A stretch of 32,000 nt of DNA, taken from assembly GCA_029851105.1 (NCBI GenBank), contig CP099822.1:1-32000 (forward strand). The letters run 5' to 3'. The DNA is from Candidatus Saccharimonadota bacterium. Its GTDB lineage: Bacteria > Bacteroidota > Bacteroidia > Flavobacteriales > Blattabacteriaceae. Within the stretch, counting starts at the first letter, position 1. Every line of letters starts with the position of its first letter. Below the pieces are notes generated by a model, which saw only the letters and a list, made by a program, of their open reading frames with translations, was not told the DNA's origin and ran no database searches. A program made the translations under genes and the position numbers. This document shows, in pieces, positions 15 through 28,051 of the stretch.

Positions 15-3000
15 TTATTCTAAATTAAGATTTAAACATAACCCTTTTAATTCATTTGTTAAAACATTAAAAGATTCAGGAATACCAGGTTCAGGTATTT
101 TTTTACCTTTTACTATAGATTCATATGTTTTAGATCTACCTTTAATATCATCAGATTTTATAGTTAATAATTCTCTTAATATATTAGAAGCACCAAAAGC
201 TTCTAAAGCCCATACTTCCATTTCACCAAATCTTTGACCACCGAATTGTGATTTTCCACCTAATGGTTGTTGAGTAATTAAAGAATATGGTCCTATAGAT
301 CTAGCATGCATTTTATCATCTACCATATGACCTAATTTAAACATATATATAACTCCTATAGTTATTTTATTATCAAATTTTATTCCTGTTTTACCATCAT
401 ATAAAACAGTTTTAGAAAAATTTTTAATATTATTTTTTTTAGAATATTTATATATATTTTTAATATTTTTACCATTAAAAATAGGTGTATAAAAATTTTT
501 TTTTATTTTTAATCCTATTAATCCTAAAATTGATTCTAATACTTGTCCAATATTCATTCTAGAAGGTACACTTAATGGATTTAATATTATATCTATTACA
601 GTACCATCTTTTAAAAAAGGCATATCTTCATCTTTTATTATTTTTGATATAACCCCTTTATTACCATGTCTACCTGACATTTTATCACCTACTTTTATTT
701 TTCTCTTTTTAGCTATATAAATTTTAGCTATTTTAATTATATCATTAGATAAATCATTACCTATTAATATTTTAATTTTTTTTCTTTTATATTTATTTAA
801 TAAATATTTTTTTTTTAAATTTAAATTAATAATTAATTTATTAATTAATTTTAATATTTTTTTATTTTTTATTTTTAAAAAATTAAAAAAATCTTTTTTT
901 TTTTTTTTAAAAAAAAAACTTAAAGATTTAGTTTTTAAATTATTAAAATTAATATTATAATATTTTAAAATTAAAAAAATTTTTTTAAAAAATATTTTAT
1001 ATAATTTTTTTTTTTTAATTTTAATTTTTAAATCTAATTTTTTTATTTTTTTTTTTTTTTTAATTATTTCAGTATTTATAACAGTACCATATAAAGATGA
1101 ATGGGCCCTTAAAGATGAATCTTTAACATTATTATATTTATTACCAAATATTGATTTTAATAATTTTTCTTCTGGTTTTATTATAATATTATCTTTAGGT
1201 ACTATTTTACCTATTAAAATATCTCCAGGTTTTATTTTAGTACCTATTTTAATTAACCCATTTTCATTTATATTTTTAATATCATTTTTATTAATATTAG
1301 GTATATCATTAGTAAATTCTTCTTTACCTAATTTATTATTTCTTATTTCTAATGAATATTCTTCTATATGAATAGAAGTAAAATAATCATCTCTTAAAAT
1401 TCTATTTGAAATTAAAATAGCATCTTCAAAATTATAACCTTTCCAAGACATAAAAGCTACTAATAAATTTTTACCTAATGCTAATTTACCATTTTTAATA
1501 GCAAAACCTTCAGATAAAATTTGATTTTTTTTAATTTTTTGATTTTTATGAACTTTAGGTTTAAAATTTAAACAAGTATTTTGATTAGTTCTTTTAAATT
1601 TACTTAAATAATAAGTATAATATTTTTTATAAAAATTAATATATTTTTTTTTTTTAGAAAAATTATATTTAATAATAATTTTATTAGAATCTACATATTT
1701 AATAATACCATTTTCTTTAGCTTTTATTATATTTCTAGAATAATTAACAATTTTTTTTTCTAATCCAGTACCTACTATTGGAACTTCTAATTTTAATAAA
1801 GGTACAGCTTGTCTCATCATATTAGAACCCATTAATGCTCTATTAGCATCATCATGTTCTAAAAAAGGTATTAATGAAGCTGAAATAGATAATATTTGAT
1901 TATTAGAATAATCAATATAATTTATTTTTTTTTTTTTAATTAAAATAAAATCATTATTGTATCTTACAATAATTTTTTTTTTTTTTTTTAAAAAAAAATT
2001 AAATGAAGCTATTTTTTTATTATATTCTTTATCAGATATTAAATATTTTTTTTTATAATTTTTTTTATTATAATTGATTATTTTATAATAAGGAGTTTCT
2101 AAAAAACCTATATCATTTATTTTAGCAAATAAACATAATGATGATATTAATCCTATATTAGGTCCTTCTGGAGTTTCTATAGGGCATAATCTTCCATAAT
2201 AAGAATAATTTACATCTCTAGCTTCAAAACTAGCTCTTTCTCTAGTTAATCCTCCTGGACCTAATAAAGTTAATCTTCTTTTATGAGTAATTTCAGATAA
2301 TGGATTAGTTTTATCCATAAATTGAGATAATTGATTAGTACCAAAAAAAGTATTAATTATTGAAGTTAATATTTTAGTATTTATTAAATCAATTGGTGAA
2401 TATTTTTTTTTTTTTAAAGTAAATTTTTTTTTTATTTTTTTTGATATTCTTAATATTCCTATATTAAATAAATTAAATAATAATTCACTTATTGTTTTAA
2501 CTTTTTTATTTGATAAACTATCTATTTCATTAGAAATTTTTTTTTTATTTTTAATTAAATTTATTAAATATTTTATTATATAAATAATATCTTTTTTAGT
2601 TATTACCATTAAATTATAAGGTAATTTTAATTTTAATATTTTATTTAATTTATATCTACCTATTCTACCTAAAGAATATTTTTTTTTTGAAAAAAATAAT
2701 TTTTTAATAAATTTTTTAGCTATTTTTATATTGGGAGGTAAAATTTTTTTATATTTTTTATAAAAATAAAAAATAGATTCTTTATAATTTTTAATTTTAT
2801 CTTTTTTAAAAGTATTTTTTAATATATTATATTTTTTATTATTATTTTTAATATAAACATATTTAATATTATTTTTTTTTAAAAAATTAATATTTTTTTT
2901 ATTAAAAATAATATTTTTTTTAAAATCTAATTTTTTATTAATTTTTATTTTAAATAAATTTTTTTTACCTATTATATGTTTTATATTTTTTTTTTTAATT

Positions 3001-3657
3001 TTAATTTTTTTATATAAATTAAAATTTTTCATAATATTTTTATTAGACCTATATCCTATAGCCTTTAAAAATATTGTTAATAAAATCTTTTTTCTTTTGT
3101 CAATATAAACATATATTATATTATTAATATCTATTATAAATTCTAACCAAGAACCTTTACTAGGTATTAATTTTGAATAATATAATTTTATACCACTATA
3201 ATGATAAAAACTATTAAAAAATAACCCAGGTGATCTATATAATTGATAAACAATTACTCTTTCAGAACCATTAAATATAAATGTACCATTAGGAGTAATA
3301 TATGGACAAGTACATAAAAAAACTTTTTGATTTTTTTTTTTTATTTTTTTATTATTATTATAATATAATTTTAATTTAATTTTAATATTAACATTATAAG
3401 TTAATCCATTATCAATACATTCTTTAATAGAATATTTAGGGGGGATCTATATAATAATTAATAAATTTAATTATATAATTTTTTTTTTTATTATAAATAG
3501 GAAAAATATTATTTAATACTTTAAATAATAATTTTTTTTTTTTATTTGTAGTTTTTAAATCTAAAAATTCTTTAAAAGATCTTATTTGTTCTTTTAAAAA
3601 ATCTGGATATTTTATATTATTATTAATATAATTTAAATTAATAGTTTTTTTAAACAT
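15..3657 (-). CDS. rpoB: DNA-directed RNA polymerase beta subunit, interrupted by a +1 frameshift at 3439..3444
   Basis: Hand-joined from 3657..3439 (MFKKT...YPDFLKEQIRSFKEFL...YYIDPP) and 3437..18 (KYSIKECIDNGLTY...GSERVIVYQLYRSPG...GSWLEF...GDKMSGRHGNKG...FGEMEVWALEAFGA...), with TAA at 17..15. The stretch 3033..3446 is stop-free in the frame of the 1005-aa ORF. The joined product is about 1213 aa. The C6 run breaks the frame. Confidence 0.9.
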
Positions 3658-3667
3658 TTAAATTAAT

Positions 3668-4078
3668 TTATTTTATTTCTATAACAGCATCTATTTTTTT
3701 AAATTCTTCTTGTATTTTTTTAGCTTCTTCTATTTTTAATGATTTTTTAATTAAACTAGGCATATTATCTATAAATTTTTTTGATTCAGTTAAACTTAAT
3801 CCAGTAATATTTTTTAAAAGTTTTATAACAGGTAATTTAACAGTACCAACTGATTTTAAATAAATATCTACTATAGATGAAGTAATATTTTTTTCTTTAT
3901 TTAAATTATTATTATTATTATTATCTTTTTTATCTACTAAAATATTATTTTGTTGTTCTAAATTTAAATTATTATTTATTTTTATTTCATATTTTTTTTC
4001 TAAAATATTAGATAATTCATTAATTTCTTTTATATTTAAATTAACTAATATTTTAGCTATATCTTTTATATTTTTCAT
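3668..4078 (-). CDS. rplL: 50S ribosomal protein L7/L12
   Basis: The C-terminal domain VKLPVIKLLKNITGLSLTESKKFID...IEEAKKIQEEFKKIDAVIEIK matches the L7/L12 pattern. The gene sits between rplJ and rpoB. The hinge is replaced by an Asn run. Confidence 0.9.
   Translation of the reverse strand: MKNIKDIAKILVNLNIKEINELSNILEKKYEIKINNNLNLEQQNNILVDKKDNNNNNNLNKEKNITSSIVDIYLKSVGTVKLPVIKLLKNITGLSLTESKKFIDNMPSLIKKSLKIEEAKKIQEEFKKIDAVIEIK
3906..3923 (-). repeat. (AAT)6 trinucleotide repeat encoding the Asn6 hinge of L7/L12
   Basis: The plus strand reads ttattattattattatta. In frame it gives DNNNNNNL. Confidence 0.9.
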
Positions 4079-5308: not shown

Positions 5309-5732
5309 TTTTTATTTTTATACCTATTGATTTTAATGTACCTTTTATCATAGAAATAGCTGATTTAATTTTAAAACAATTTAAATCAGACATTTTATAT
5401 TTAGCTATTTTTTTAATTTCTTTAATATCAATTTCACCTATTTTTTTTTTATTAGGTTCATTAGAACCTTTTTTAATTTTTAATAAATTAAATATTTTAT
5501 CTTTTATAGATTGTTTTTTAATTTCAAAATTAAAACTTTTATCATCATAAATATTAATAATTACAGGAATACTTTTATTCATATATTCTTTATTTTTAGT
5601 TTCTTTATTAAATTTATTACAAAAATCCATTATATTAATACCTATAGAACCTAATGCAGGACCAATAGGAGGTGAAGGATTAGCTAATCCCCCTTTAATT
5701 ATTAATTTAATTGATTTTATTATTTTTTTCAT
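5292..5732 (-). CDS. rplK: 50S ribosomal protein L11
   Basis: The N-terminal KLIIKGGLANPSPPIGPALGSIGINIMDFCNKFN is the conserved L11 signature. It overlaps rplA by 17 nt. Confidence 0.92.
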   Translation of the reverse strand: MKKIIKSIKLIIKGGLANPSPPIGPALGSIGINIMDFCNKFNKETKNKEYMNKSIPVIINIYDDKSFNFEIKKQSIKDKIFNLLKIKKGSNEPNKKKIGEIDIKEIKKIAKYKMSDLNCFKIKSAISMIKGTLKSIGIKIKNEKKK

Positions 5733-6178
5733 TTTTTTTTTTTAATTTGATCAATTTTTATTTTTATAGGTATTATTTTACCTAAAATTAAAATTAATAT
5801 TTCTATTTTTTTTTTTTTTTTATAAATTTTATTTATTTTACCATTTTTATTTTTAAATATACCTTTTTTAATAATAATGGTTTCACCTATATTATATTTT
5901 TTTTTTTTTTTATAATTAATATTTTTTTTTTTATAATAATTATTATTATTAATATTTAATGGTAATTTATTTATTCTTTCATTTAAAAAATAAGATACAC
6001 CTTCTATATTTTTTATAAAAAAAAAAATTTTTTTATTTAAAAAAATTTTAATCATTAAATATCCTAAATAATATTTTTTTTTAATTTTTTTTTTAATTTT
6101 TTTTTCTATTTTATTTATAATTATATCTTCATAATTATTTTTTATTTTTAAAATATACCATTTTTTTTTTTTTAACAT
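5729..6178 (-). CDS. nusG: Transcription termination/antitermination factor NusG (shortened, 149 aa)
   Basis: KKWYILKIK NGN start, YLGYLMIKI (resembling fPGYvlv), and a KOW-like GETIIIKKGIFKNKNGKINKI. Syntenic slot upstream of rplK, with an ATGA overlap. Confidence 0.75.
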   Translation of the reverse strand: MLKKKKWYILKIKNNYEDIIINKIEKKIKKKIKKKYYLGYLMIKIFLNKKIFFFIKNIEGVSYFLNERINKLPLNINNNNYYKKKNINYKKKKKYNIGETIIIKKGIFKNKNGKINKIYKKKKKIEILILILGKIIPIKIKIDQIKKKK

Positions 6179-6257
6179 TATATTATTAATTAATAATTAA
6201 TTTAATATAGTTTTTTTTTAAAAAAAAAATATAAATATAATATTAATTTTAAATTAA

Positions 6258-6329
6258 CACGGATGGTAAGATTTGAACTTACAACCTTCAGTTTTGGAGA
6301 CTGATGCTCTACCATTAAGCTACATCCGT
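6258..6329 (-). tRNA. trnW: tRNA-Trp (anticodon CCA)
   Basis: Hand-folded cloverleaf: acceptor ACGGATG/CATCCGT, anticodon loop CTCCAAA, T-arm GTAAG-TTCAAAT-CTTAC. It is a G+C island in AT-only flanks. No CCA end is encoded. Confidence 0.9.
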
Positions 6330-6377
6330 AATTTTTTTTAAAATTTTTTAAATTATTAATATTAATATTAATATATA

Positions 6378-7556
6378 TTATTTAATAATTTTAATAATTT
6401 TACCAGCACCTACTGTTTTACCGCCTTCTCTAATAGCAAATTTTAATCCTTCATTTAATGCTACAGATTTATTTAATTTTACTTTTATATTTAAATTATC
6501 TCCTGGCATAACCATTTCTATACCTTTATCTAATTTAATAGTCCCTGTTATATCAGTAGTTCTTAAATAAAATTGTGGTTTATATCTATTATAAAAAGGA
6601 GTATGTCTACCACCTTCTTCTTTTTTTAAAATATAAATTTTAGCTTTAAATTCTTTATAAGAATTAAAAGTATTAGGTGTACAAATAATCATACCTCTTT
6701 TAACTTGATTTTTTTCTATACTACGTAATAATAATCCTACATTATCACCCGCTTCACCTTTATCTAAAATTTTTCTAAACATTTCAATACCTGTTACAAT
6801 AGTTTTTATTTTTTTATTCATTCCTATACATTCTACTGAATCACCTGTTTTAATAACCCCAGATTCTATTTTACCAGTACATACAGTACCTCTACCTGTA
6901 ATAGTAAAAATATCTTCTATAGACATTAAAAAAGGTTTATTAATTTCTCTTATAGGATTAGGGATATATTCATCTATTTTATTCATTAATTTATAAATAC
7001 CATCAATATATTTTTTATCACCTTTTAAGGCTTTTAAAGCTGAACCTTTTATAATAGGTACATCTTTATAACCATATGATTCTAATAATTCTTTAGTTTC
7101 TTCTTCTACTAATTCTAATAATTCTTTATCTTTTAATAAATCTATTTTATTTAAAAAAACTAAAATTTTAGGTACTCCTACTTGTTTAGCTAATAATATA
7201 TGTTCTCTAGTTTGAGGCATAGGTCCATCTGTAGCTGCTATAACTAAAATAGCACCATCCATTTGAGCTGCCCCTGTTATCATATTTTTTATATAATCTG
7301 AATGTCCTGGACAATCAATATGTGCATAATGTTTATTTTCAGTTTGATATTCTATATGTGAAGTATTAATAGTAATACCTCTTTCTATTTCTTCAGGAGC
7401 ATTATCAATATTAATAAATTTTTTTTCTTCTGCTAATCCTTTTAAGGATAATGCTTTAGTAATAGCTGCAGTTAAAGTAGTTTTACCATGATCAACATGA
7501 CCTATTGTACCTATATTTAAATGAGGTTTATCACGATTAAATTTTTCTTTTACCAT
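6378..7556 (-). CDS. tuf: Elongation factor Tu
   Basis: [18 protein letters not shown] and NKIDL G-domain motifs. The 392-aa ORF is conserved along its full length. Confidence 0.98.
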
Positions 7557-7576
7557 ATATTTTTTTTTAAAAATAA

Positions 7577-7649
7577 AGCGAGAAACGGGATTTGAACCCG
7601 TAATCTTCAGCTTGGAAGGCTGGTATTCTACCTATTGAACTATTCTCGC
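7577..7649 (-). tRNA. trnG: tRNA-Gly (anticodon UCC)
   Basis: Acceptor GCGAGAA/TTCTCGC, anticodon loop CTTCCAA, T-arm ACGGG-TTCAAAT-CCCGT; 73 nt. Confidence 0.9.
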
Positions 7650-7677
7650 AGTTTAATTTAAAAATAAAATTTTTAAA

Positions 7678-7761
7678 TGGGGAGAGTAGGATTTGAACCT
7701 ACGAAGATTATTAATCAACAGATTTACAGTCTGTCCTCGTTAACCACTTGAGTATCTCCCC
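7678..7761 (-). tRNA. trnY: tRNA-Tyr (anticodon GUA), long variable arm
   Basis: Acceptor GGGGAGA/TCTCCCC, anticodon loop containing GTA (ACTGTAAAT), T-arm TAGG-TTCAAAT-CCTA; 84 nt. Confidence 0.9.
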
Positions 7762-7823
7762 TTATTATATTTAATTTTAATTTAAAAAATTAATATTTTT
7801 TAAATAAAATAATTAATAAATAA

Positions 7824-7896
7824 AGCCGATGGAGGGATTTGAACCCCCGACAACGAGATTACAAATCACGTGCTCTACCTTCTGAGCTACATCGGC
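7824..7896 (-). tRNA. trnT: tRNA-Thr (anticodon UGU)
   Basis: Acceptor GCCGATG/CATCGGC, anticodon loop TTTGTAA, T-arm GGGGG-TTCAAAT-CCCTC; 73 nt. Confidence 0.9.
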
Positions 7897-7915
7897 AATA
7901 TAATATATATTATAT

Positions 7916-7930
7916 TATATATATATATAT
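7916..7930. repeat. (TA)7 dinucleotide run in the G/C-free divergent spacer between tRNA-Thr and leuS
   Basis: Read directly: tatatatatatatat. Confidence 0.9.
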
Positions 7931-7941
7931 TTTTAAAAAAA

Positions 7942-10554
7942 ATGAAATATAATTTTAAAAAAATTGAAAATAATATAAAAAAAAAATATAAAAAATTTAA
8001 TTTTTTTAATATAAATAAAAAATCAAAAAAAAAATTTTATATATTAAATATGTTCCCTTATCCTTCAGGAAGTGGATTACATGTAGGTCATACTATAGGT
8101 TATATATTTTCAGATATTATTGCAAAATATAAATCTAGTTGTGGTTATAAAATTTTAAATCCTATAGGATTTGATTCTTTTGGATTACCTGCTGAACAAT
8201 ATGCTATTAAAAATAATAAAAGTCCTAATAAAATAATAAAAAAATGTATTAAAAATTATAAAAAACAAATTAAAAAAATTAATATTTTTTTTAATTGGGA
8301 AAAAGAAATAATAACTAGTAAAAGTAATTATTATAAATGGACTCAATGGATTTTTATAAAATTATTTAATTCTTGGTATGATAATAAAAAAAAAAAAGCT
8401 AGAAATATTAAAGTTTTAATTAAAAAATTAATAAATAAAAAAATTAAATATAAAAATAAAATAATAAAATGGAATAAAATTAATTATAAAAAAAAAAATA
8501 AAATATTAAATAATTTTAGATTAATTTTTTTAAAAAAAAGTTATGTTAATTGGTGTCCTAAATTATCTACAGTATTAGCTAATGAAGAAATTAAAAATGG
8601 TAAAAGTATTAGAGGAAATTATAATATAATTATAAAAAAAATGTTACAATGGCATATTAGAATTAAAGTTTATTCTGATAGATTATTAAGAGATTTAAAA
8701 TTATTAAATTGGCCTAAAAATATAAAAAATTCTCAAAAAAAATGGATAGGTAAATATTATTATTATTATTCTTATTTAAGAATAAATAAAAAAAAAATAA
8801 AAATTTATTTTAAAAAAAAAAAAAATTTAAAAAATATAAAAAATATAATTATTAATTATCCATCTTCTAAAGCTAATAAATTTATTAATAATTTAAAAAA
8901 AAAAAAAATTAAAAAATATATTAAAAAAAAAATTAATTTAAATGAAAAATTTAAAATTTTAATTAAAACTAATATTTTAAATGAAAAAAAAAAAAAAATA
9001 AATATATATATAAGTAATTATTTTAATAATAATGATATTAATATTAATAATACTGTAATAAAAACTAATAGTAATAATAAATTTTTCTTTAAAAGAAATA
9101 ATATTTTATTAAATATTTTTAAAGATTTTAATATAAAAAAAATATATATATCTAAAAATAAAAAAAAAAAAAAAATTTTAAAATTAAAAAATATAATTTT
9201 TTCTAGACAAAGATCTTGGGGAGAACCTATTCCTATTTTTTATAAAAAAAAAATACCATTTAATATAAATGAAAAATATTTACCAATAAAATTACCTTAT
9301 AAAAAAAAATATTTTAAATTAAAATATTATAATAAATGGTCATGGGATGATAATAAAAAAAAAATAGTATATAATAAATATTTAAATGAAAAAAAAAAAA
9401 TTTTTAAATTAGATACTAATACTATGTCTAGTATAGCCGGTTCTAATTGGTATTTTATAAGATATATAGATAATAAAAATAAAAAAAAAATTATAGATAA
9501 AAAAAAAGAATTATTTTGGAAAAATGTTGATTTATATATAGGTGGTGCTGAACATACTAATGGTCATTTATTATATTCTAGATTTTGTCAAAAATTTTTA
9601 AAAGATATTAATATTTTAAAATATAAAGAACCTTTTAAAAAATTTATAAATCAAGGTACTATTTTATATAAATCAATTTCTATTTTAAAAATAAAAAATA
9701 AGAATATTTTTATATCATATGATTTAATTAAAAAATATAAAAATAAAATAAAATATAAATATATAAAAAATAAATATTTAAAAAAAAAAAATGAATTAAA
9801 TATAAAAAAATTTAAAAAAAAATATAAAAAATATAAATTTATTAAAAAAAAAAAATTTATATGTTATTTAAAATTAGAAAAAATGTCTAAATCAAAATTA
9901 AATATAATTAATCCTATTAAAATTATTAATCAATATGGTATTGATACATTTAGATTATATCAAATTTTTATTGGTCCTTTTAATAAAAAAAAAATATGGA
10001 ATATAAAAAATATAAAAGGAATTTATAAATTCTTAAAAAGAATATGGTTTTATTTTAAAAAAAATAAAAAAAAAATAAAAAATAAAAAACCATTAATAAT
10101 AGAAAAATATTATATTAATGATTTAATTAAAAAAATTAAATTTAATTATTTAAATTTAAATTTAAATACTTCAATTAGTTTTTTTATGATTACATTTAAT
10201 TTTTTTATTAAAAATAAATGTATAAATAAAATTATTTTAGAAAAATTTTTAATAATATTTTCGGCTTTTGCACCTTTTATATCAGAAATGATTTGGTTTT
10301 TATTAAAAAATAAAAATAGTATTTTTTATGAAAAATTTCCAAAATTAAATATAAAATATTTAAAAAAAAAAAAAATAAAATATATAATTATGATAAATAA
10401 TAAAAAAAAAATAATAATTTATATTAAAAAAAAATATAATAATAAAAATTATATTTTATATAAATTAAAAAATAATATTTTTTTTAAAAAAAAAATTAAA
10501 AAAATAAAAAAAATTATTTTTATAAAAAATAAAATATTAAATTTATTAATTTAA
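7942..10554 (+). CDS. leuS: Leucyl-tRNA synthetase (start corrected to the internal ATG; CP1 region eroded)
   Basis: MFPYPSGSGLHVGH (HIGH motif), WIG..., SRQRSWGEPIPIFY, GGAEHTNGHLLYSRF, KMSKSK. The first 24 codons of the track ORF (7870..7941) overlap tRNA-Thr and are non-homologous, so MKYNFKKIENN at 7942 is the likely start. Confidence 0.9.
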   Translation: MKYNFKKIENNIKKKYKKFNFFNINKKSKKKFYILNMFPYPSGSGLHVGHTIGYIFSDIIAKYKSSCGYKILNPIGFDSFGLPAEQYAIKNNKSPNKIIKKCIKNYKKQIKKINIFFNWEKEIITSKSNYYKWTQWIFIKLFNSWYDNKKKKARNIKVLIKKLINKKIKYKNKIIKWNKINYKKKNKILNNFRLIFLKKSYVNWCPKLSTVLANEEIKNGKSIRGNYNIIIKKMLQWHIRIKVYSDRLLRDLKLLNWPKNIKNSQKKWIGKYYYYYSYLRINKKKIKIYFKKKKNLKNIKNIIINYPSSKANKFINNLKKKKIKKYIKKKINLNEKFKILIKTNILNEKKKKINIYISNYFNNNDININNTVIKTNSNNKFFFKRNNILLNIFKDFNIKKIYISKNKKKKKILKLKNIIFSRQRSWGEPIPIFYKKKIPFNINEKYLPIKLPYKKKYFKLKYYNKWSWDDNKKKIVYNKYLNEKKKIFKLDTNTMSSIAGSNWYFIRYIDNKNKKKIIDKKKELFWKNVDLYIGGAEHTNGHLLYSRFCQKFLKDINILKYKEPFKKFINQGTILYKSISILKIKNKNIFISYDLIKKYKNKIKYKYIKNKYLKKKNELNIKKFKKKYKKYKFIKKKKFICYLKLEKMSKSKLNIINPIKIINQYGIDTFRLYQIFIGPFNKKKIWNIKNIKGIYKFLKRIWFYFKKNKKKIKNKKPLIIEKYYINDLIKKIKFNYLNLNLNTSISFFMITFNFFIKNKCINKIILEKFLIIFSAFAPFISEMIWFLLKNKNSIFYEKFPKLNIKYLKKKKIKYIIMINNKKKIIIYIKKKYNNKNYILYKLKNNIFFKKKIKKIKKIIFIKNKILNLLI

Positions 10555-21714: not shown

Positions 21715-22257
21715 ATGAAATATTATAATAAAAATAAAAAAATTATTATACCAGAATATGGTAGAAATATACAAAAATTAGTAGAATATACTTTAAAAAT
21801 AAAAGATAAAAATATAAAAAAAAAAAATTATAAATATATATTAAATTTAATGAAATTAGTAAATAAAAATAAATTTTTAAATTTAAAAATAAAATTTTTA
21901 TATCAATTATATTTAATTTCTAATATGAAAATTAAAGAATTAAATTTTTTATTTAAAAATTTTATAAAATTAATTAATAATAATAATAAAAAAATAAAAT
22001 ATCCTAAAAAAAATTTAATAAAATTTAAATATTATGGTAAAATAATACAAGATTTTATTAATAAATATATTATATATATAAAAAATAAAAATAAAAAAAT
22101 AAGAATTATAAAAATAATAATAAATATAATGAGAAATAATTATAAAAAATGGAATAATAAATATTTTATAAATAATTTAATTTTATATAATGATATAAAA
22201 AAAATATCTAATAAAAAATTAGATATAATAAAAGAATATAAAAATATTAAAATATAA
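21715..22257 (+). CDS. DUF4290-family conserved Bacteroidota protein of unknown function
   Basis: The N-terminal YNKNKKIIIPEYGRNIQKLVEY matches the family hallmark (YNT.r..L.lPEYGRN.QkMV), recalled from memory. Confidence 0.7.
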   Translation: MKYYNKNKKIIIPEYGRNIQKLVEYTLKIKDKNIKKKNYKYILNLMKLVNKNKFLNLKIKFLYQLYLISNMKIKELNFLFKNFIKLINNNNKKIKYPKKNLIKFKYYGKIIQDFINKYIIYIKNKNKKIRIIKIIINIMRNNYKKWNNKYFINNLILYNDIKKISNKKLDIIKEYKNIKI

Positions 22258-27118: not shown

Positions 27119-27758
27119 TTTAATTCTTTTAAATAAGATTGATTTTTTTAAAAAAAAATTTAATTATATTAAAAAAATTAATGATTATAAAAATTATAAT
27201 CATATTATATATTTATATGTAAAAAGTTATTTAAATTCTAAAAGATTAGGTAATAGTAAAACTAAAGAAAGAAGTGAAATAAAAGGTAGTACTAAAAAAA
27301 TACAAAAACAAAAAGGTACAGGTAATTCTAGAAAAGGTGATATTAAAAATCCTTTATTTAAAGGTGGTGGTAGAGTATTTGGTCCTAAAAAAAGAAATTA
27401 TAAAATAAAAATTAATAAAAATATTTTTAAAAATATAAAAAAAATTTTATTTTGTAAAAAAATTTTTAAAAAAAAAATTTTTCTTTTAAAAAAATTTAAA
27501 TTTTTATCTCATAAAACTAAATATTTTATTAATTTTTTTTTAAAAAAAAAAATTAAAATAAATAATAAAAAAAAAAAATTTTTAATTTTAACTGATAAAA
27601 TATATAAAAATTTATTAATTTCATCTAAAAATTTAAAAAATATTAATATAAATTGGATAAATAATATTAATTTATATAAAATATTAATATCAGATTATAT
27701 TATATTAATAGGTAATAATATAGATGAATATATATTAAATATAATTAAAAAAAAATGA
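27108..27758 (+). CDS. rplD: 50S ribosomal protein L4
   Basis: QKQKGTGNSRKGDIKNPLFKGGGRVFGPKKRNY. S10-operon order. Confidence 0.85.
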   Translation: MKNNLILLNKIDFFKKKFNYIKKINDYKNYNHIIYLYVKSYLNSKRLGNSKTKERSEIKGSTKKIQKQKGTGNSRKGDIKNPLFKGGGRVFGPKKRNYKIKINKNIFKNIKKILFCKKIFKKKIFLLKKFKFLSHKTKYFINFFLKKKIKINNKKKKFLILTDKIYKNLLISSKNLKNININWINNINLYKILISDYIILIGNNIDEYILNIIKKK

Positions 27759-28051
27759 AATTATTTATTAATCCATTAAAAACATTAAAATCATTTTTTT
27801 TATATAAAAAATATTATATATGTACTTTTATTTTAAATAAAAAAGGTTTTAATAAAATACAATTAAAAAAATATTTTTATATAAATTATTCTATAAAAAT
27901 TAATAAAATTAATATTATTAAAGTTAAAAAAAAATTTAAAAAAAAAAAAATAATAAAAAGTAAAATTAAAATTTTAACTAAAATAATTGTAAAATTTAAT
28001 AAAACTATATATAGTAAAAAATTTATAATAGAAAATAAAAAAAATGAATAA
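27755..28051 (+). CDS. rplW: 50S ribosomal protein L23 (diverged)
   Basis: Syntenic slot between rplD and rplB, right size (98 aa), weak L23 pattern. Confidence 0.7.
   Translation: MKLFINPLKTLKSFFLYKKYYICTFILNKKGFNKIQLKKYFYINYSIKINKINIIKVKKKFKKKKIIKSKIKILTKIIVKFNKTIYSKKFIIENKKNE

Follow-up and report, generated by a model that had tools for sequence, protein, structure and literature searches.

The first 32,000 nucleotides of contig CP099822.1 (assembly GCA_029851105.1; hereafter the window, whose positions are used for all coordinates) carry on the minus strand a gene for RNA polymerase's beta subunit, rpoB, which is split by one extra base after codon 73. The evidence gathered here leaves little doubt that the frameshift reported in a preliminary description of this DNA is real at the DNA level, and indicates that both halves of the gene are kept under coding constraint, each in its own frame. 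A full-length beta subunit is probably obtained through +1 ribosomal frameshifting at the motif CCC_UAA_A. As judged from sequence-level criteria, the case would be a natural corrective +1 frameshift of the shifty-stop class in the RNA polymerase beta gene of an endosymbiont, retained in two lineages. Shikimatogenerans, the group that takes in the window genome and those compared with it, live as Bacteroidota endosymbionts in bostrichid beetles and have genomes of 173-200 kb at ~15% GC (PMC10284843); the G+C content of the window is 14.3%, with base frequencies of 0.065 for C and 0.078 for G.

An rpoB gene split between two frames

The coding strand at the junction reads AAT TAT TAT ATA GAT CCC CCC TAA ATA TTC TAT, and the gene is split at GAT CCC CCC TAA A (3444..3435). 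Frame 0 gives an open reading frame (ORF) of 73 amino acids (aa; 3657..3436) that aligns with the RpoB N-terminus of relatives and ends in YYIDPP, followed by TAA at 3438..3436. Over 1144 codons, from 3446 to 15, the +1 frame stays open and reads IPPKYSIKECIDNGLTYN... with no other disruption inside; it overlaps the frame of the 73-aa ORF, and together they encode one conserved protein. The features to which the text refers are the following:

3439..3657, minus strand: rpoB frame-0 segment, codons 1-73 (MFKK...FINYYIDPP), from ATG 3657..3655 to the second CCC 3441..3439
3439..3444, minus strand: C6 run made of two CCC Pro codons (G6 on the plus strand), the first CCC being 3444..3442
3435..3441, minus strand: proposed shift heptamer CCC_TAA_A, with the P-site Pro codon CCC at 3441..3439 and the stop TAA at 3438..3436
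3437..3435, minus strand: +1-frame codon AAA, completed by the A at 3435; proposed post-slip pairing of tRNA-Pro on CCT 3440..3438
3447..3449, minus strand: TAG, a +1-frame stop a short way upstream of the site, which with TAA 3438..3436 brackets GAT CCC CCC
15..3437, minus strand: rpoB +1-frame segment, from AAA (K74) to TAA 17..15; 1140 sense codons, residues 74-1213
3033..3437, minus strand: stretch of 405 nucleotides (nt) from the shift site to the first canonical +1-frame start (ATG 3032..3030); RpoB residues 74-208

Flanked by the TAG at 3449..3447 and the TAA at 3438..3436, any productive frame change in the window genome is confined to the codons GAT CCC CCC. Removal of one C yields an RpoB of 1213 aa with the junction YYIDPPKYSIKEC, in which YYIDPP joined to KYSIKEC aligns gap-free with YYIDPPKYTIEEC and YYIDPPRYSIEEC of other Bacteroidota RpoB; within the YYIDPP(K/R)Y block of that alignment, P72 and P73 are invariant. 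The repaired protein aligns end to end with intact orthologs (tblastn), its closest proteins being RpoB of Candidatus Shikimatogenerans bostrichidophilus (61-63% identity), which carry PF04563, PF04561, PF04565 and PF00562, and residues 74-208 align with conserved RpoB blocks such as GSERVIVYQLYRSPG and KGSWLEF. These results bear out the preliminary description, which had recognised an rpoB broken by a +1 frameshift into the 73-aa ORF (3657..3436) and a 1005-aa ORF beginning at the ATG at 3032, had proposed that the intended product needs one C fewer or a +1 slip of tRNA-Pro, and had named YYIDPP(R/K)Y as a conserved block of Bacteroidota RpoB.

The C6 run at the site is, as had also been stated, the only G/C homopolymer of at least 6 nt in the window, where ~0.01 would be expected by chance (hand estimate from base frequencies). 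The next longest G/C runs are two C5, at 7844-7848 in tRNA-Thr and at 5689-5693; the former had been correctly reported as next in length, although it had been taken for the only C5.

A second carrier and the origin of the insertion

A scan of one-genome-per-species contigs, with at least two Shikimatogenerans loci among the matches listed, provided a second genome with the same break, DMIN1 (CP099824.1, locus L004). It shows 88% nucleotide identity to the window over 9.7 kb and 91% within rpoB, and both genomes form a tight pair, well apart from the rest, in an RplL tree of 19 Shikimatogenerans. The codon broken in DMIN1 is the same, its site reading GAT CCT CCC TAA ATA TAC, with YYIDPP and a stop in frame 0 and LPKYTIYECINNGLTYN in frame +1, and the alignment of the two genomes has no indel at the site. 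The run of C is interrupted in DMIN1 (C3), and the element in common is the heptamer CCC_TAA_A, not the homopolymer. The C6 run, singled out in the title of the preliminary description, therefore gives way to the CCC-stop heptamer, since DMIN1 carries CCTCCCT. Across the rpoB alignment, moreover, no CCC triplet besides the P-site one is shared by the window and DMIN1, whatever the frame, each of the four others being changed in the partner genome.

Sister genomes, whose comparison had been suggested from the start, are otherwise in frame at the site: 10/10 other Shikimatogenerans (the five nearest outgroups and five more distant; loci L002, L003, L005, L008, L010/L011, L014, L015, L017/L018 and L019) have CCT or CCA followed by AAA or AAT. 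The simplest history would have one C inserted, a single time, in the ancestor that both lineages share, whereby CCT AAA became CCC TAA A. The first Pro codon is CCC (3444..3442) in the window and CCT in both DMIN1 and the nearest intact relative, so a later synonymous change from CCT to CCC most likely took place in the window lineage.

The rpoB of DMIN1 shows in addition a second frame change (L004:8602-8623), where the frames overlap at an A17 tract (GATAAAAAAAAAAAAAAAAAGATATAA) inside a lysine-rich, lineage-specific insert with an 11-nt indel with respect to the window. This other break would reflect either a mistake in the assembly or transcriptional slippage at poly(A), of the type described in Buchnera and Blochmannia.

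Reality of the extra base

An error of sequencing or assembly, with C5 in the true genome and an intact rpoB, had been the first of the explanations listed in the preliminary description. A Logan contig from SRR19201384, which is an independent assembly, is identical to the window at 1267/1267 positions (2587..3853), C6 included. This run is a HiSeq3000 short-read one by elimination, based on the run types given in PMC10284843, where the genomes of the project are reported as sequenced mainly on HiSeq3000 and assembled with SPAdes, with long-read runs SRR19201352, 57, 85 and 86. As a calibration, other NCBI assemblies of the same project were compared with Logan contigs from their own reads: three pairs had 0 differences, and one, CP099821.1, differed at two A-runs inside rpoB (L010:6094 and 6183, against the Logan contig of SRR19201365, L011), with A7 vs A9 and A4 vs A5. 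These differences break the NCBI rpoB call of CP099821.1, which ends at 223 aa, against a frame of at least 611 aa in the Logan contig. Errors or heterogeneity in the length of A-runs do therefore occur in deposited Shikimatogenerans genomes.

A related observation comes from CP099823.1 (L002:8650-8740), whose rpoB is called as two pieces of 885 aa and 402 aa, with the break among several A17-A20 runs with NNN, where the assembly leaves an unresolved gap within an essential gene. Homopolymer discrepancies in the genomes of the project, namely the two A-runs of CP099821.1 and the NNN in the poly(A) region of CP099823.1, lend the error hypothesis some credit in general. However, all the discrepancies observed between assemblies and Logan contigs lie in A-runs, the C6 site not being among them; the Logan contig retrieves C6 with 0 differences in 1267 bp; and the extra base recurs in DMIN1, a genome from another beetle sample, within CCTCCCT, where there is no homopolymer. 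Since the flanking bases differ, the DMIN1 allele was not copied from the window genome. An error at this position is extremely improbable.

Coding constraint on both halves

Substitutions between the window and DMIN1 rpoB change phase at the site. Upstream of it, 9/12 fall at frame-0 third positions (counts 1/2/9, p=0.009), and downstream 118/212 fall at +1-frame third positions (counts 118/55/39, p=2e-11), which indicates that the wobble phase jumps by +1 exactly at the site. The 405-nt stretch before the first ATG shows the same excess at +1-frame third positions (28/12/9, p=0.0017), a bias that argues for translation of residues 74-208 and against the 1005-aa ORF as a real product. The latter was accordingly discarded as a candidate for the true product, as the 135 codons upstream of its internal ATG (3032) evolve as coding sequence. 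Ratios of non-synonymous to synonymous divergence (dN/dS, by the Nei-Gojobori method) are 0.12, 0.34 and 0.27 for the N-terminal, middle and C-terminal segments, respectively, the first of them with 7 synonymous and 5 non-synonymous changes; the synonymous divergence (dS) is ~0.2. At this base composition ~10% of random codons would be stops (hand estimate), so that open frames of 73 and 1144 codons are themselves evidence of selection. These patterns of substitution show both halves of rpoB to be under coding constraint, each in its own frame.

A dead or dying rpoB, in a symbiont relying on something else, would agree with the annotation, since NCBI calls no rpoB protein in either the window genome or DMIN1 and gives the 73-aa piece as the hypothetical protein NHG11_00010; it would also agree with the accumulation of pseudogenes in tiny symbiont genomes (10.1101/2025.10.31.685726). 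A homolog search with the 73-aa piece gave its self match alone (NHG11_00010) and no further frameshifted alleles. Yet an open frame of 1144 codons in DNA with 14% GC cannot persist by chance, and the dN/dS values of 0.12-0.34 together with the frame-specific third-position bias reflect constraint since the lineages split. Moreover, RNA polymerase beta is indispensable, and no second rpoB copy is seen within the 32-kb window. The marks of a pseudogene, such as extra stops or indels, a dN/dS near 1 or the absence of phase bias, are not found in the window rpoB. On these sequence data a dead gene is excluded, and the idea that the symbiont does without rpoB is hardly tenable.

Proposed route to the full-length beta subunit

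Among the explanations put forward in the preliminary description, +1 ribosomal frameshifting at the CCC-stop gives the best fit, with CCC_TAA_A exactly conserved between the two genomes, and an obligatory and fixed frameshift, with tRNA-Pro moving from CCC onto CCU, would best explain the arrangement of the gene. Both CCC_UGA and CCC_UAA are known +1 shifty stops (PMC3082878). The site presents a shiftable codon for the P site next to a stop for the A site, and a slip from CCC to CCT preserves both C:G pairs. It is also conserved in the two carrier genomes, with purifying selection on both frames.

According to the proposed mechanism, peptidyl-tRNA-Pro would occupy the P site, paired with the rare CCC, and the A site would hold the stop UAA, with slow termination after the Pro-Pro C-terminus. 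Release of a peptide that ends in Pro-Pro is inefficient, and the pause would be prolonged as a result. The tRNA would then re-pair one base downstream, on CCU, AAA would be read as Lys, and translation would go on along 1140 codons to give ...YYIDPPKYSIKEC..., with the conserved DPPK. Ribosomes that terminate would release the 73-aa fragment, presumably useless.

CCC is a rare codon in the window genes. The 237 Pro codons among 10,227 are distributed as CCT 183, CCA 51, CCC 3 and CCG 0; two of the three CCC codons fall at the rpoB site, and no other in-frame CCC_TAA exists in the window. No tRNA-Pro gene is present in the window or the fetched loci, and trmD, efp and the release-factor genes are likewise not among the genes of the window. 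Because the genome hardly uses CCC and never CCG, the tRNA set deduced from this usage very likely comprises a single tRNA-Pro with UGG anticodon, which would read CCC weakly and be prone to shift.

Several points weigh against this reading. Frame correction on the ribosome rather than in the RNA is something that we infer, and the C6 run of the window genome could permit some slippage of RNA polymerase or during replication. The shift is carried by only two of the genomes compared, and its conservation amounts to one shared ancestral event; in the case of DMIN1, the Logan contig (L013) stops at an A16 tract that lies ~80 nt away from the site, so that the allele rests there on the deposited assembly. 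With regard to stimulatory signals, which are common at programmed sites though not obligatory, no Shine-Dalgarno-like (GGAGG-like) sequence was found upstream of the site, in AT-rich surroundings, and the fold of the 151-nt RNA at the site is unremarkable (z=-1.29). Efficiency is the weakest point: a bare CCC_UGA typically shifts at no more than 2% in Escherichia coli (PMC3082878), so either the translation system here is much more permissive or feedback compensates. A shift of that size might not yield enough of a subunit that is essential and stoichiometric, unless translation in this symbiont is much more prone to shift.

In the proposed model the efficiency of the shift would be high enough to provide RNA polymerase, perhaps with the help of operon feedback by analogy with the E. 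coli rpoB mutant discussed below. The Pro-Pro end of the nascent chain might act as a stimulator at the peptide level. Scans of the sequence added little to this picture: the Rfam scan gave no family besides tRNAs, and the promoter/terminator scan gave 34 sites, against 25±5 expected, with nothing specific to the site.

Whether the site has gone beyond a tolerated lesion, to become a recoding signal tuned and used by selection, is a separate matter, and such a role seems doubtful. The change from CCT to CCC against an extreme AT bias, which made CCC_CCC_UAA, could raise the efficiency of the shift by tandem re-pairing or by adding slippage at the RNA level, and a +1 slip at Pro-Pro-stop could tie the synthesis of RNA polymerase to release-factor activity, to tRNA-Pro modification or to elongation factor P (EF-P). 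If true, the site would be an analogue of prfB, with transcription capacity set by a translational sensor. In a related and equally doubtful version, frameshifting would be near-quantitative because the symbiont had lost what usually holds tRNA-Pro slippage in check, namely m1G37/TrmD, EF-P and the tRNA with GGG anticodon.

Other routes of expression

A slip of RNA polymerase, dropping one C on the G6 template to give an in-frame mRNA, had also been considered in the preliminary description. A G/C homopolymer of 6 nt is highly unusual in DNA with 14% GC, and the change of the first Pro codon from CCT to CCC lengthened the run against the AT mutational bias; besides, Buchnera and Blochmannia have frameshifted genes whose expression is restored by poly(A) slippage (PMC5009743), and the second rpoB break of DMIN1, in its A17 tract, fits such a mechanism. 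On the other hand, DMIN1 has only C3 at the site, so that slippage is neither the ancestral nor the common mechanism, and a C6 run is short when set against the bacterial cases documented in passages of the recoding review, with ~9 or more A/T (PMC5009743). Runs of ~9 or more in all carriers are thus not what is found, the window having C6 and DMIN1 C3. Slippage as the source of beta is therefore decidedly unlikely, and it could at most add to expression in the window genome. A slip by -2 was also considered as a shared mechanism and rejected, given that it would place an extra Pro on C6 and cannot re-pair on the CCTCCC of DMIN1. As to quadruplet decoding, which is itself a form of ribosomal correction, a tRNA-Pro with an expanded anticodon loop, of the sufA6 or sufB2 type, would read CCCU as one Pro. 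The Salmonella sufA6 and sufB2 raise +1 shifting at CCC_UGA (PMC3082878), and with CCC at 3/237 Pro codons in the window, misreading of CCC-N would be cheap; however, the lack of any tRNA-Pro gene in the window or the fetched loci deprives this idea of direct support, and the slippage of an ordinary tRNA suffices with no extra assumption. Quadruplet decoding is accordingly rated as very unlikely.

An alternative of another nature is a beta subunit made of two chains, the 73-aa N-terminal piece and a C-terminal piece initiated separately by termination-reinitiation, which would assemble non-covalently. Archaea have a naturally split beta, and that of E. coli can be divided artificially; the purifying selection on both pieces would be needed by a two-piece enzyme as well, and DMIN1 offers a candidate restart codon, a +1-frame TTG 11 nt upstream of the stop (ORF 6209..8623). 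Nevertheless, from the TAG at 3449 to codon 209 (138 codons) the +1 frame of the window lacks ATG, GTG and TTG alike, yet residues 74-208 are conserved and evolve as coding; without a canonical start, a restart in the window would need ATC or ATT. No restart codon is common to the window and DMIN1, and the break lies inside the invariant YYIDPPKY block and not in a dispensable linker. A split enzyme is unlikely on these grounds, even if it keeps somewhat more weight than polymerase slippage or quadruplet decoding, and +1 ribosomal frameshifting is retained as the probable route.

Gene surroundings

The broken rpoB closes a minus-strand cluster with tRNA-Thr/Tyr/Gly, tuf, tRNA-Trp, nusG, rplK, rplA, rplJ and rplL, in the conserved operon position rplK-rplA-rplJ-rplL-rpoB. 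Within this cluster, secE is apparently absent between tRNA-Trp and nusG, where a gap of ~80 nt is left (6178..6257), and the window NusG is short, with 149 aa vs 166-190 aa in several relatives.

The 35 other ORFs examined in the window are all intact, despite A/T runs of up to 19 nt. Runs of A/T of at least 10 nt number dozens, many of them intragenic as lysine runs, and the sole frame break in 32 kb falls at the C run, not at an A run. Stop usage at the gene ends of the window (the 35 intact ORFs plus the two rpoB stops) is TAA 30, TGA 4 and TAG 3, and the anticodon of tRNA-Trp is CCA. Given TGA at 4/37 gene ends and this anticodon, UGA is apparently still a stop in the window genome, and both release-factor specificities should be needed.

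Two further genes deserve mention. An ORF of 98 aa at 27755..28051 on the plus strand, between rplD and rplB, occupies the place expected for rplW and matches Pfam L23 weakly (E=3.6e-4), its 21.3 bits falling short of the gathering score of 30.8. According to a comparative preprint, rplW is absent from all Shikimatogenerans genomes (10.1101/2025.10.31.685726), and the gene may be present in the window in a highly diverged form. On the same strand, a protein of 180 aa at 21715..22257 matches DUF4290 alone (E=4.5e-24), and its retention in a genome of ~178 kb suggests that it is important, albeit uncharacterised.

Relation to known recoding systems

No report of ribosomal frameshifting in a symbiont rpoB was found in a search of the literature, and rpoB frameshifts are unmentioned in the genome paper (PMC10284843) and in the comparative preprint (10.1101/2025.10.31.685726). 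The endosymbiont cases included in the recoding review correspond to RNA-polymerase slippage at poly(A), not to ribosomal events (PMC5009743). If the interpretation offered here is true, corrective ribosomal frameshifting would extend from mitochondria to a bacterial endosymbiont and to a core enzyme of transcription, and the junction peptide FINYYIDPPK would be predicted from an mRNA that keeps the extra C. On a practical level, annotation pipelines drop such an rpoB, reporting a 73-aa hypothetical protein and no beta subunit, and gene-content tables and pseudogene counts consequently under-report an essential gene. The sister lineages with and without the insertion also constitute a natural experiment on the limits of reading-frame fidelity in a genome of 178 kb.

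The poly(A) slippage of Buchnera and Blochmannia (Tamas et al. 2008, as presented in passages of PMC5009743) is alike in that a needed gene is retained with a frameshift in an AT-rich insect endosymbiont. Slippage in those bacteria, as described there, acts on long A-runs at the step of RNA polymerase, whereas the rpoB site is a CCC-stop with no shared homopolymer; the A17 break of DMIN1 is the one that resembles this class. The corrective +1 frameshifts of animal mitochondria, as covered in passages of the same review (PMC5009743), are similar as well, with one base fixed in an essential gene of a small, non-recombining and vertically inherited genome. They are, however, organellar and have other shift contexts, while the present case concerns the RNA polymerase gene of a bacterial symbiont.

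With respect to the motif itself, the closest parallels are found in phages. SPP1 and Q54 (Lactobacillus phage) use CCC_UAA, according to passages of PMC3082878, and the Listeria phages PSA, A118 and A500, whose low-GC host seldom employs CCC, use CCC_UGA, according to passages of PMC5009743. Motif and direction are identical in all of them, CCC plus a stop, and the Listeria hosts share the low GC and the rarity of CCC. Phage sites nonetheless yield two useful proteins in a set ratio, whereas the products expected here are a 73-aa stub and a sole useful shifted protein. The autoregulated prfB gene, for release factor 2, is likewise a chromosomal bacterial gene of essential function, and its product depends entirely on a +1 slip where an in-frame stop comes right after the slipping codon, near the beginning of the gene. 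Its signal is CUU_UGA_C, with tRNA-Leu on CUU, a UGA read by its own product, which provides feedback, and a Shine-Dalgarno-like stimulator 3 nt upstream. None of these features is present in rpoB, where the heptamer is CCC_TAA_A, the upstream sequence is AT-rich and the product is RNA polymerase beta and not a release factor; a logic of regulation is not evident either.

The most pertinent parallel to the present site is an E. coli rpoB mutant with a +1 insertion, whose viability depends on slippage of tRNA-Pro(proM) on CCC-AGG-C, at 5% (Huseby et al. 2020, PMC7022156). Operon feedback lifts RpoB in that mutant to 61-71% of the wild type, and the loss of the CCC-cognate proL tRNA improves growth (PMC7022156). 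Both cases share the gene, the insertion of one nucleotide and the proposed slip from CCC to an overlapping CCN at a slow A-site codon. The E. coli mutation was selected in the laboratory for rifampicin resistance, lies in the middle of the gene and has the rare sense codon AGG in the A site, whereas the Shikimatogenerans site is natural, falls at codon 73, with UAA in the A site, and has persisted while two symbiont lineages diverged. If confirmed as such, it would be the natural and evolutionarily retained counterpart of the laboratory result on a frameshifted rpoB (PMC7022156).

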